From: an uncultured Ruficoccus sp.
Lineage (GTDB): Bacteria; Verrucomicrobiota; Verrucomicrobiia; Opitutales; Cerasicoccaceae
Length of the DNA stretch: 64,000 bases
Direction of reading: 5' to 3'
Assembly: GCA_965140785.1 (NCBI GenBank)
Contig: OZ223473.1
Coordinates: forward strand, 3,591-67,590
Below, piece by piece: positions 376 to 64,000 of this stretch (position 1 is its first letter; every line of letters starts with the position of its first letter). The notes beneath the pieces are model-generated. The model had not been told where the DNA came from. It saw nothing but the letters and a program-made list of their open reading frames with translations, and made no database searches. The position numbers were made by a program, and so were the translations under genes.

Positions 376-423
376 ACCCTCCCAAGTCTGCTCCCCGCCC
401 CTCCGCTGGCAATGCTGCTTTTT

Positions 424-664
424 AACTGGGCTTATGCAGCCCAGGCCCGCAGCAGGCATAGCCTGCACTTTCGATGCTGCGCATCGCGTCAGTGTTTGTT
501 GAAAAGAGTGGAACTCTTTTCAACAAACACTGAGGAGCATCAAAACTGGGTTGCACCATCGAGCTCAGGCACAGATCACGCGAACGAATGTTTTATTGGC
601 GAAGCCGTGTCAGTGAAGGCTCCAATGTCGGTCTGGCGTTTGGGCGGAGCCCCGCAAACTGTAA
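424..664 (-). repeat. Multi-hairpin intergenic element, copy 1 (homolog of 63761-64000)
   Basis: Perfect 21-bp inverted repeat 489-509/513-533. Block 446-491 is 44/46 identical and block 535-550 is 16/16 identical to the reverse complement of blocks in copy 2. Confidence 0.8.
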
Positions 665-2804: not shown

Positions 2805-2968
2805 CGTAGGGGCTCAGCCTCTGCTGTGAGGCATGTGAAGTTTCTTTGAGTTGGCGACAATCGCCGTGGCCCATGCCGCCGCGTTAGAGGCGGCATCAGT
2901 GATGCGGGAGCATCACAGGTGCAGGACTTTGTCCTGCCCCTCAATGTCGAGTGCGGTCACGCACCTAC
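2805..2968. repeat. REP/BIME-like hairpin cluster between convergent genes
   Basis: 2937-2965 is 28/29 identical to the reverse complement of 63779-63807. Stacked hairpins include GTGATGC/GCATCAC, ATGCCGCC/GGCGGCAT and GCAGGAC/GTCCTGC; CGTAGGGGC at 2805. Confidence 0.7.
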
Positions 2969-23889: not shown

Positions 23890-24031
23890 GTTTGGACAGC
23901 TTGCGGGGCCGGGGCCGGGGCTTCAACGAAGAAACGCCCGGCGGGGATTTTTTCATGCCTATCCCAAGGGGGAAAGCGGGCGGCGGAGCAGCTTTTTCTC
24001 CCGACAGAGCCCGAAATCCGGGCATAAAAAA

Positions 24032-24128
24032 GGCCAGGCACCCCCACGGCACACGCGAATCCTGACTACCGTTGCTTCCTTCCGGACCTGGCGGGATTCG
24101 CCGGTTCGTCGTTGCATGGGACCCGGCC
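24032..24128 (-). ncRNA. ffs: Signal recognition particle RNA (4.5S type)
   Basis: Reverse complement contains CCAGGTCCGGAAGGAAGCAACGG (SRP conserved helix), has GGCC terminal pairing, and lies upstream of dnaX. Confidence 0.92.
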
Positions 24129-25364: not shown

Positions 25365-25532
25365 CGCGCAGTGTCTTAACCGCAAACGCCGCCCAAAGAC
25401 AGGAAAAACTCCGTACACTCCGGCTGGAGCAGCTTCGAAGGGTTAAGTAGCGACATAGACAGAAAAATTCGACCCTGCGTAGAGCGTTCCCCATGCCTTT
25501 GTTTCAGGCAAAGGCATCCAGATGCGAAGCAT

Positions 25533-25892
25533 CTAGGGTGAAGGACTTTGTCCTTCCTCGGCGTCGAGTTCGTCGAGGATCTGGAGAACAGAGGTGCCGC
25601 GGGCGATGGAGTCGTCGTGCTCGAAACGCAGGCGAGGCAGGTATTTTAGGACGATACGCTTGCCCAACTCCTGCCGGATGTCGCGGTGGCGGGCGGCGAA
25701 GAATTTCTCCGCCAGGTAGGCATTACCCTCGTCGCCAAGGATCGAGTAAAACACGCGGGCACCACGCAGGTCCGGCGAGACAACCACCTCGGTAATCGTG
25801 ATGTTGACCGCATCGCTCTGATAGCGCGTGTGCAGGATGTCGCTGACCTCGCGCTTAACGAGCTCGTTGACGCGTGTACCTCGGTTAGACAT
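25533..25892 (-). CDS. rbfA: Ribosome-binding factor A
   Basis: RVNELVKREVS, VSPDLRGARVF, LKYLPRLRF; downstream of infB. Confidence 0.95.
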   Translation of the reverse strand: MSNRGTRVNELVKREVSDILHTRYQSDAVNITITEVVVSPDLRGARVFYSILGDEGNAYLAEKFFAARHRDIRQELGKRIVLKYLPRLRFEHDDSIARGTSVLQILDELDAEEGQSPSP

Positions 25893-32253: not shown

Positions 32254-32293
32254 GCGGATTACATCCGCAGGCATTGAGGGGCAAGCCCCTACG
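32250..32293. repeat. REP-like doublet overlapping a stop codon
   Basis: CTAG-GCGGAT-TAC-ATCCGC, spacer CATTGA, then GGGGC-AA-GCCCC-TAC (inverted GTAG-REP). Flanks are shared with 63798-63823. Confidence 0.7.
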
Positions 32294-32328
32294 GCTACCC
32301 TTTCATTCGTCAACGGGTGTGACCCGCA

Positions 32329-36835: not shown

Positions 36836-36937
36836 GTGTCCCGAGTCCACAAGCTTGCTGGCGGCTGCGCCGGGCCGCCTGAGGCACTTGTGGATCGGAG
36901 AAGTTCCGCTTGCTTTTTTGGTAATTTGAGAGATGAT

Positions 36938-37092
36938 TATCCGCAGCCGAATCAGGGGGCCAGACCCTCTGAACGGGGGACCCACACTGTCCGGGCAACC
37001 GGACCGGGGCTAATTCATTCAGCGCGAGCTGAGTGGAGGGCGACTCTTCCTGCCCAGCCCGTCAGCTAACCTCGGAGGCTTGGGAGAGAGAA
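36938..37092 (+). promoter_or_regulatory. c-di-AMP riboswitch (ydaO/yuaA class)
   Basis: Consensus blocks in the expected order: GCCGAATC, ACGGGGGACCCA, GGGGCTAAT, AGGGCGACTCTT, CCCGTCAGCTAACCTCGGAGGC, GGGAGAGAG. GNRA-capped inserted stems; directly upstream of a K+ transporter gene. Confidence 0.88.
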
Positions 37093-37168
37093 TCGGTCGG
37101 CATGATCGAGACTCTCGTCATGCATCATACACGCGGACTCCGCTCCGCGACCTAACCTAACGACCGAT

Positions 37169-55319: not shown

Positions 55320-55395
55320 TGGAGCCATCCATCGGATTCGAACCGACGACCTGCTCATTACGAGTGAGCTGCTCTACCAACTGAGCTAGGATGGC
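55320..55395 (-). tRNA. tRNA-Thr(CGT)
   Basis: 76-nt cloverleaf GCCATCC...GCTCA-CT-CGT-AA-TGAGC...GGTTCGAATCC...CCA. Confidence 0.97.
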
Positions 55396-63478: not shown

Positions 63479-63760
63479 GTGCCCCCTTCCGAGCCACCCT
63501 CACGCCTCGCGGTCAAGGTCGTACCCTCTTCCTCCCGCAACGCTCCGGCGGGCTGGCTCGGCGAGGCTTTTAAAATCAAAGTCCAGGCCCCGCCCGAACG
63601 CGGCAAGGCCAACAAGGCAGTGACGAAGCTTCTCGCCGAATGGCTCGACGTATCCGAAAACTCGATACACCTGCTCTCCGGCGACACCTCCCCGAGCAAG
63701 GTCTTCGAGATCGAAGGGCTCACTGCGGCCGAGGTGCGCCAACGGCTCGATAAGGTGTGA
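63479..63760 (+). CDS. DUF167/YggU family protein
   Basis: VKVVPSSS, KVQAPPERGKANKAV, SGDTSPSK. Confidence 0.9.
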   Translation: MPPSEPPSRLAVKVVPSSSRNAPAGWLGEAFKIKVQAPPERGKANKAVTKLLAEWLDVSENSIHLLSGDTSPSKVFEIEGLTAAEVRQRLDKV

Positions 63761-64000
63761 TTTTTTGCGGGGCTACGCGGTGCGTGACCGCACTGGACAT
63801 TGAGGGGGACAAGTCCCCCTACGCTCCTTGCAGTTGCTACCCCAGCAACGCACCACGTGCAAAATGGTAGCACCCAGTTTTGATGCTCTGCTCAGCGATT
63901 ACGTGAAACAGCTTTGTTGTTTCACGTAATCGCTGACACGATGCGCAGCATCGAAAGTGCAGGCTCTGCCTGCTGCGGGTGTGGGGCGCACAGCCCCACA
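63761..64000 (+). repeat. Multi-hairpin intergenic element, copy 2 (may run past the window edge)
   Basis: Perfect 19-bp inverted repeat 63892-63910/63918-63936 flanked by blocks shared with 424-664; also shares 63779-63807 with 2937-2965. Confidence 0.8.

Follow-up and report, generated by a model that had tools for sequence, protein, structure and literature searches.

A probable REPIN/MITE/BIME-like repeat family with a variable but paired stem in an uncultured Ruficoccus and its genus

Two copies of a palindromic unit in the window

The window studied here is a stretch of 64,000 nt from an uncultured Ruficoccus sp. (Verrucomicrobiota; Cerasicoccaceae), positions 3,591-67,590 of contig OZ223473.1 in assembly GCA_965140785.1. 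Two of its intergenic regions hold copies of a non-coding unit, called F1 below. Both copies are probably members of a genus-specific, high-copy, non-coding DNA repeat that resembles REPINs (doublets of repetitive extragenic palindromic, or REP, sequences forming hairpins), miniature inverted-repeat transposable elements (MITEs) and bacterial interspersed mosaic elements (BIMEs). Copy 1 is on the minus strand, directly after the stop codon of serS (open reading frame, ORF, 665-2011, minus), and copy 2 is on the plus strand, directly after the stop codon (63759-63761) of an upstream gene, a putative DUF167. The genome that holds the window is designated G000 and the other four species of the genus G012, G013, G014 and G015; the most complete relative is G013 (98% complete, 2 contigs). 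Copies were scored with R1, a covariance model built from 22 full-length F1 copies of G000. The features of both loci are the following, no strand being given for hairpins (P2, P3, P4 and the terminal hairpin).

416-563, minus strand: F1 copy 1, full length, 148 nt (R1 154 bits, E 9e-44; aligns with 21 other G000 copies)
535-550, minus strand: near-invariant 5' motif of copy 1, GAGCATCAAAACTGGG, which is CCCAGTTTTGATGCTC in unit orientation (alignment and fold)
489-533: P2 of copy 1, a perfect palindrome with 21-bp arms and a 3-nt loop, its mid-stem hypervariable between copies (read from the sequence)
472-486: P3 of copy 1, a CGATGC-NNN-GCATCG hairpin or 15-bp palindrome, essentially invariant (pairing counts)
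452-466: P4 of copy 1, a GCAGGC-NNN-GCCTGC hairpin, then YGCGGG (pairing counts)
426-444: GC-rich terminal hairpin of copy 1, CTGGGC-TTATG-CAGCCCAG, with a T/A run outside (sequence; one of at least five recurrent types)
604-659, plus strand: shortened F3-type unit, head-to-head with copy 1 (resembles the 5' part of full F3 units, GTGTCAG..CTTCAAAGTCGGTCC-hairpin)
63860-64000, plus strand: F1 copy 2, cut by the window end (R1 141.6 bits truncated, 151.7 bits at full length, L015)
63873-63888, plus strand: 5' motif of copy 2, CCCAGTTTTGATGCTC (read from the sequence)
63892-63936: P2 of copy 2, 19-20-bp arms, GCGATTACGTGAAACA type (sequence and fold)
63939-63953: P3 of copy 2 (sequence and fold)
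63959-63973: P4 of copy 2 (sequence and fold)
63980-64000: terminal hairpin of copy 2, TGTGGGGC-GCACA-GCCCCACA type (sequence and fold)
63762-63859, minus strand: repeat modules adjoining copy 2, a terminal-hairpin remnant (TTTTTTGCGGGGCTACGC) and then a GTAG-type REP cluster with GTGCGTGACCGCAC (read from the sequence)

The full copy 2 corresponds to window positions 63860-64009 (G000:C2:67450-67599) and extends 9 nt past the window end. Whichever strand is folded, and whether DNA or RNA parameters are used, the ~150-nt cores of both copies have folding z-scores of -7 to -9; 0 of 200 shuffles was as stable, and the two strands of the unit fold equally well.

An F1 unit (~150 nt) starts with AAGGTGGCGACCCAG, followed by the near-invariant TTTTGATGCT and by P2 with its 21-bp arms. 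P3, AAAGT, P4 and YGCGGG come next, and the 3' end is made up of the GC-rich terminal hairpin, often followed by an A-run. Within the 5' motif, T19-T21 and G23-G26 are invariant in the G000 alignment and most neighbouring positions are at least 90% conserved. TTTTGATGCT is the inverted repeat of AGCATCGAAA, a part of P3 on the far side of P2, with one fixed T.G position, so that F1 as a whole is a single large, imperfect palindrome, its outer arms being invariant and its inner stem variable; minimum-energy folds pair the two motifs and enclose P2. All six pairs of P3 are unchanged in 61-63 of 63 copies; in 42 further copies four of the six never vary and the other two depart only by unpaired cells in one or two copies. 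The fifth pair of P4 covaries in G013 (G:C 23, C:G 16, A:U 1), and P4 variants in G000 include GCAGAC/GTCTGC, GCAGCC/GGCTGC and GCAAGC/GCTTGC.

An initial annotation of this stretch had described the two loci as a collinear pair of ~240-bp elements. When the loci are read and the reverse complement of copy 1 is aligned to copy 2, all the anchors and hairpins it listed are found in their places. On the plus strand, however, one copy is the inverse of the other, and only ~150 nt are common to both. The supposed 240-bp element is a mosaic, made up of F1 and a shortened F3 unit at copy 1 and of F1 and a GTAG-type REP cluster at copy 2, and the anchors TTTGCGGGGCTMCGC and GACATTG lie in different neighbouring repeat modules. 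At copy 1, GACATTG and TTTGCGGGGCTCCGC are the other strand of the shortened F3 unit at 604-659, and the cluster beside copy 2 reads on the minus strand as GTAG followed by a hairpin (GTAGGGGGACTTGTCCCCC, GTAGCCCCGC). Since the flanking modules differ between copies, the 5' anchors lie in non-homologous neighbours that have short GC-rich hairpins in common. The module beside copy 2 is also found upstream of many other F1 units. The terminal hairpins had been taken for a covarying pair but are two of the recurrent types, and no covariation of the 5' CCCAG with the terminal hairpin was seen by eye. Another interpretation, in which the terminal hairpins are an independent, abundant REP family that serves as a target, was rejected: their count is about the number of units, and 62 of 118 stand in a GCGGG context. 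The GC-rich hairpin module of the 5' side of copy 2 also forms about six tandem repeats with a 44-bp period at G000:C47:87878-88125 (BLAST).

In general, F1 units occur alone, beside F3, beside GTAG-REP clusters or beside other hairpin modules. About a quarter of them have an F3 partner head-to-head, in composites with ~60-bp terminal inverted repeats. Several palindromic modules are thus found in varying order and orientation in intergenic DNA, which is a BIME-type trait. The BIMEs of E. coli are intergenic mosaics of short palindromic modules that alternate in orientation and are concentrated at gene 3' ends. F1 is similarly part of a mosaic of palindromic modules near gene 3' ends, but the module sequences are unrelated and a REP is much shorter than the F1 module.

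The variable long hairpin

The pair statistics of P2 come from 105 full units of four genomes. These units have 102 distinct P2 sequences, yet 2101 of their 2140 pairs (98.2%) are Watson-Crick; the others are 12 G.U (0.6%), 5 A.C and 22 other mismatches. The covariation was evaluated on 42 G013 copies with 500 shuffles and a slid-partner control. In these copies 17 of the 21 P2 pairs change on both sides while 99.4% of the cells are paired, two cells being G.U, which bears out the earlier suggestion that the long hairpin is kept as a structure and not as a sequence. In these copies overall, 97.1% of the cells are paired, against 84.1% in the shuffles and 29-46% with slid partners, and there are 196 double-sided changes against 48; none of the 500 shuffles attains the observed values.

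The interiors of the two long hairpins in the window had been regarded as unrelated. Across copies, however, the stems align as TCAG-YG-WTT...AAA..AG, with variation that peaks in a ~5-bp mid-stem segment. Since conservation is partial in the outer 9 bp and in the AAA..AG segment, the interiors are homologous and represent diverged versions of one stem. The stem type of copy 2 recurs with changes elsewhere in G000, for example at C18:104.8k and C48:141.9k.

The kind of changes in P2 is informative about the molecule under constraint. An RNA helix under selection is expected to tolerate G.U far better than other mismatches. Because G.U is tolerated no better than other mismatches in P2 and pair swaps are frequent, often as transversions (A:T to T:A, C:G to G:C), the constraint seems to bear on a DNA palindrome and not on an RNA helix. 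The patterns point to a palindrome kept symmetric by intrastrand templating and/or selection. Quasipalindrome template-switch mutagenesis, formulated in the Ripley model, is known from thyA and lacZ reporters in E. coli. Template switching that perfects quasipalindromes is an established mutational process in this bacterium, and the model predicts Watson-Crick-only stems, transversion swaps that result from single mutations and flipped loops (PMC7202029), all of which agree with F1. Among the copy pairs with identical distal P2 stems, 7 have reverse-complement loops and 12 the same loop, while by our own estimate chance would give about 1.4 reverse-complement pairs for 3-nt loops. In a young subfamily of the metagenome-assembled genome (MAG) 5_bin.45, one stem position shows all four states (A:T, T:A, A.A and T.T), which fits a single point mutation followed by arm-to-arm copying. 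Template switching probably keeps P2 perfect, perhaps together with selection for hairpin extrusion. Contrary to the reporter systems, the process is deduced here from comparative patterns in more than 100 natural copies.

The initial annotation had also envisaged a cassette that some mechanism rewrites. Active rewriting of the hairpin interior, be it by reverse-transcriptase diversification, spacer-like acquisition or cassette exchange, would be congruent with the near uniqueness of the stems and with the concentration of their variability in the ~5-bp mid-stem segment. Rates at matching loci suggest otherwise. The core (P3 to YGCGGG) and the 5' motif were compared at seven loci common to G000 and the MAG JB024, and each is 92% identical. 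The called third codon positions of the flanking genes, some of whose reading frames are miscalled, are 76% identical overall and 63-81% identical in the correctly framed genes. P2 was compared in same-orientation pairs only, of which three are in register and two more out of register; in the three in-register comparisons the arms are 61-67% identical, meaning that 33-39% of arm positions differ, against about 24-28% at the weakly constrained codon positions. P2 appears to change about as fast as weakly constrained sites or somewhat faster, which would make a rewriting mechanism unnecessary. Moreover, all four bases vary without an adenine bias, the homologous stems may differ by single pairs, half-converted intermediates are present, and no diversifying enzyme was found beside any copy examined. 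Given the near-neutral divergence, the mismatched intermediates and the flipped loops, ordinary mutation and palindrome symmetrisation are enough, and rewriting seems very improbable. The conservation of the core above that of weakly constrained sites implies purifying selection on single copies, gene conversion or recent re-insertion.

Copy number, turnover and the search for a partner enzyme

Far from being a pair, as initially thought, F1 is abundant. A 70-nt probe finds 41 places in G000 and motif searches find 42-43 core motifs, while R1 has 89 matches in this genome, 61 in G012, 130 in G013, 27 in G014 and 118 in the remaining species of the genus. Eleven genomes from five other genera of the family have 0-3 matches. 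Among GTDB representatives, the exact core motif occurs beyond G000 only in "Verrucomicrobiota bacterium JB024" and "Verrucomicrobiia bacterium 5_bin.45", both MAGs. It is also present in one metagenome contig and was not found in viral contigs. Phage and plasmid records searched with the F1 unit gave no match. Rfam 15 gave no match to the repeat in the window at gathering thresholds, and only chance-level matches around copy 1 at E up to 10. The proposal of a multi-copy, non-coding element is supported. Its author had named beforehand what would speak against it, that is, only two copies, no covariation, a known Rfam family or artefactual hairpins; instead, the copies are many, the covariation is strong, no Rfam family matches and the hairpins are present in five assemblies. 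That the perfect hairpins are fold-back assembly artefacts can practically be dismissed, as the same architecture recurs hundreds of times in five independent assemblies, one of them in two contigs, with unique flanking sequence and copy-specific stems.

The genomic context was counted for the 114 units with callable neighbours, genes being rough calls based on ORFs and on G+C content at third codon positions. Convergent genes surround 61 units, 36 are in tandem regions (24 co-oriented, 12 antisense) and 17 lie between divergent genes. Repeats of the REP and MITE types are typically enriched at gene 3' ends in this way.

The occupancy of matching sites differs among relatives. The serS intergenic site is empty in G014, where ~15 bp separate serS from the conserved CTGGCAAT that precedes the next gene. 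In G000 the site is filled, and in G013 and G015 the whole composite stands in the opposite orientation, with full F3 partners; in G012 its flanks are on different contigs. The motif CTGGCAAT(G), at 400-420 in the window, lies just upstream of a minus-strand gene that starts near 375 and is conserved in 5/5 species; it is also part of a repeat module, GCGGAG-TGC-CTCCGC-TGGCAATGA-GGGGC.., upstream of many units. The site of copy 2 is without an F1 unit in G015, in a paralogous G000 contig and in G012, which has other repeat modules there; in G013 the site is occupied by a complete F1 unit, inverted and decayed, with the same TTTTGCGGGGCTACGC at its start. Two side observations concern this region. 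G000:C16:258-1361 is a second copy, 79-86% identical and without F1, of the putative DUF167 region and the downstream gene, and is explained either by paralogous duplication or by the binning of a related strain's DNA with this assembly. A short repeat rich in CACGAAG/CTTCGTG fills the region downstream of the putative DUF167 ortholog in L139 (G015:C155) and L140 (G012:C20).

Between G000 and JB024, three matching loci are filled in one genome and empty in the other, five carry units in the same orientation and two are inverted in place, terminal hairpins included. The in-place inversions concern F3+F1 composites with both flanks orthologous (G000:C4:25410-25709 versus L057, and window 416-659 versus G015, L053/L080). 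The inverted pairs are unusually similar, with 1 and 3 differences in the first 18 P2-arm positions, and in one pair both members have the same rare variant of the terminal hairpin. These composites could result from a flip of the whole element or from insertions that recurred at a hot spot. Inversion by recombination inside the terminal inverted repeats was rejected, as at both of these loci the terminal hairpins are inverted together with the unit. As read from the compared sequences, the loci indicate that insertion, loss and flipping of units have probably occurred since the species split.

Several known systems may account for such mobility. One possibility is a MITE of the cut-and-paste kind, mobilised in trans by an IS630/Tc1-like DDE transposase with TA in CTAG as its target, the hairpins being incidental cargo. 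Some F1 subfamilies are enclosed by 35-bp terminal inverted repeats (CTAGTGTCSCGAGT..) with CTAG at both ends, for which there is no clean empty site for comparison. One of these subfamilies has about 12 near-identical copies in G000 and a 128-bp internal-deletion derivative, and a similar repeat-flanked form exists in 5_bin.45. Hairpin MITEs, such as the Correia elements of Neisseria, the enterobacterial ERIC and IS630-derived elements, are shorter than 300 bp, have no ORF, bear terminal inverted repeats and target TA or CTAG. The repeat-flanked F1 forms share their size, the absence of an ORF, the CTAG ends, the long hairpins if transcribed and a presence that differs between relatives, and JB024 carries an IS630-type element with CTAG ends (L135 1019-2023). 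Yet its terminal inverted repeats differ from those of the F1 subfamilies, and no cognate insertion sequence with matching repeats was found. The combination of terminal inverted repeats, small size and no ORF holds for the 208-bp subfamily and its relatives, but most F1 units have no such repeats. PF13358 (IS630-type DDE) was found in G012 and G015 only and is absent from G000, G013 and G014. Incidental cargo would also not keep P3, P4 and the 5' motif 92% identical beside a variable yet paired P2; to our knowledge, a hypervariable yet perfect internal stem is not a described feature of Correia, ERIC or IS630-derived MITEs. A MITE of this kind is a possibility of some weight, although an unlikely one.

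A second possibility, already suggested in the initial annotation, is a REPIN population of the classical type that owes its replication to a RAYT, a REP-associated tyrosine transposase of the Y1 HUH type. REPINs consist of two invariant inverted ends and a variable hairpin-forming spacer in which compensatory changes are common (Bertels and Rainey, PMC3116915), a layout that F1 recalls. Like F1, the RAYT-replicated REPINs of Pseudomonas and enterobacteria are high-copy, extragenic, non-coding and inherited vertically within a lineage, with invariant inverted end motifs around a spacer kept hairpin-forming, and they are found as singlets and higher-order clusters. GTAG-tagged REPs adjoin many F1 units and are abundant in Opitutus terrae, a member of the same order (PMC3733652). 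G000 also encodes two near-identical 308-aa proteins (C10:480129-481055 and C43:224708-225634). They have HUH and Y motifs, their N-terminal domain resembles that of a Y1/HUH transposase (HYH motif, GRYKA), and a long extension follows at the C-terminus; G015 has comparable ORFs, while G012-G014 do not. Contrary to what this scenario requires, PF01797 (Y1/RAYT) is found in G000 and G015 only, with 0 matches in G012, G013 and G014 despite their 61, 130 and 27 repeat matches, and is thus absent from three of the five carriers, including the near-complete G013. Furthermore, the F1 consensus has neither a GTAG nor a CGTC tag, only the neighbouring modules being GTAG-tagged. F1 also differs from REPINs in being larger, in its two extra invariant short hairpins and its terminal hairpin, and in the CTAG-ended terminal inverted repeats of some subfamilies. 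A RAYT-driven population is accordingly improbable.

The other enzyme families are no better candidates: PF07282 (TnpB) was found in none of the five carrier genomes and PF01548 (IS110) in G014 only. G013, which has the most copies of the five species, has none of the four families. An IS3-type element of 1.32 kb is present in at least 10 near-identical G000 copies (including C10:556524-557847); its 326-aa ORF resembles an IS3-family DDE integrase, by resemblance only, and its ends are unrelated to F1, as are those of a second insertion sequence of ~1.37 kb with 3 copies (C25, C49). An autonomous element between outward-facing units was also considered and rejected, as the sole close pair of such units in G000 (C14:37.8k, 39.8k) flanks metG, a housekeeping gene. 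The classical REPIN/RAYT and simple MITE readings each fail a defining test, though the outline of F1 resembles both. F1 might instead provide the DNA half of a replicator that is REPIN-like and inherited vertically, with a non-RAYT partner outside the four tested types, a tentative hypothesis that we consider rather unlikely. In that case, an enzyme restricted to the genus would recognise, in folded DNA, the invariant P3/P4 double hairpin together with the inverted end motifs and would move the units or flip them in place, each copy being under purifying selection.

The window contains some further repeats and three RNA features; the latter come from an Rfam/ARAGORN scan and are unrelated to the repeat.

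2873-2965, plus strand: distant superfamily member with a long hairpin, GATGC..GCATC, AGGTG and a CAGGAC..GTCCTG hairpin (weak R1 match; sequence read)
25495-25560, plus strand: distant superfamily member with the same hairpin order (R1 24 bits; sequence read)
32255-32300: GTAG-type REP doublet, GCGGAT-TAC-ATCCGC, AGGCATTGA, GGGGC-AA-GCCCC, TACGG (the opposite strand reads GTAG and a hairpin)
24029-24128, minus strand: SRP RNA
36935-37095, plus strand: c-di-AMP riboswitch
55320-55395, minus strand: tRNA-Thr(CGU)

The distant modules keep the order of hairpins: long hairpin, GATGC..GCATC, (A/G)GGTG, CAGGNC..GNCCTG. The REP family of the doublet at 32255-32300 also adjoins many F1 units.

Folded DNA or structured RNA

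The family is probably new but of an already familiar kind, rather than a new RNA or a rewritten cassette. Of the two candidates in the initial annotation, a DNA-folding, non-autonomous, REPIN-like element fits better than a structured RNA, given the rarity of G.U and the presence of either orientation at a given site. The RNA hypothesis would make the unit mainly a cis-acting or stand-alone structured RNA (a stabiliser in 3' untranslated regions, an RNase III target or a small RNA), transcribed from the strand that reads 5'-CCCAGTTTTGATGCT... and with RNA helices as its hairpins. The conserved multi-helix architecture and the strong folding z-scores are congruent with it, and 33 of 43 G000 units have their 5' end beside the 3' end of a co-oriented gene. 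Nevertheless, the freely varying helix P2 has G.U pairs that are rarer than non-wobble mismatches, together with common transversion swaps, and the element occurs in either orientation at matching sites, some units lying in the promoter regions between divergent genes and others antisense to tandem genes. Copy 1 is without a promoter-like site, and its one terminator-like match is on the opposite strand and within chance expectation. The terminal hairpin is followed in unit orientation by an A-run and not by a U-run, and on the other strand the T-run precedes the hairpin, unlike in an intrinsic terminator. The equal folding of both strands and the lack of an Rfam match up to E 10 also disfavour an RNA. 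We regard this hypothesis as unlikely.

Several observations weigh against the DNA repeat that we favor. Some features lean towards one strand: the tandem contexts are biased (24 co-oriented units to 12), a putative closing stem P1 (ACCC/GGGU) has 22 G.U against 2 A.C, and the outer pairing TTTTGAUGCU/AGCAUCGAAA keeps a fixed U.G. Because of these features, some role at the RNA level is conceivable. No clean target-site duplication is readable at the filled/empty locus pairs of the main F1 form, since the flanking genes are ~85-92% identical and the intergenic DNA is diverged or contains other repeat modules. Each of PF01797, PF07282, PF13358 and PF01548 is lacking in three or more of the five carriers, none of them is tied to the repeat, and the repeat searches of G000 and of all fetched loci revealed only small elements and no autonomous one with matching ends. 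Template switching is itself deduced from sequence patterns, and the conservation of the core could result from gene conversion or recent re-insertion rather than from selection on each copy.

The favoured DNA repeat may work as follows. The element would act as folded DNA, its invariant inverted end motifs and P3/P4 double hairpin being the recognition sites of a putative protein, while P2 would only be required to pair. P2 would then drift almost neutrally, and intrastrand template switching (quasipalindrome correction), perhaps aided by selection for hairpin extrusion, would either erase a change in one arm or copy it across, so that each copy would end up with its own perfect hairpin. Copies would spread, turn over and flip at gene 3' ends. 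Read-through transcription would place the long hairpin in 3' untranslated regions, as a side effect or a secondary function.

For genome annotation, about 90 intergenic loci per genome (27-130 R1 matches in the five species) represent one repeat superfamily and ought not to be annotated individually as small RNAs, terminators or riboswitches. For comparative genomics, the copies mark presence/absence sites and in-place inversions. For research on mutation, more than 100 natural stems, each unique yet 98% Watson-Crick, with intermediates and flipped loops, make up a comparative data set on the upkeep of palindromes. As far as mobile DNA is concerned, the family would be a REPIN-like population with a RAYT found in only two of five carriers, in a phylum where such elements have hardly been described, and the RAYT-free carriers raise the question of what replicates or maintains F1. 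If the hypothesis of a replicator with a non-RAYT partner were true, the REPIN lifestyle would have been invented a second time, independently, in Verrucomicrobiota.

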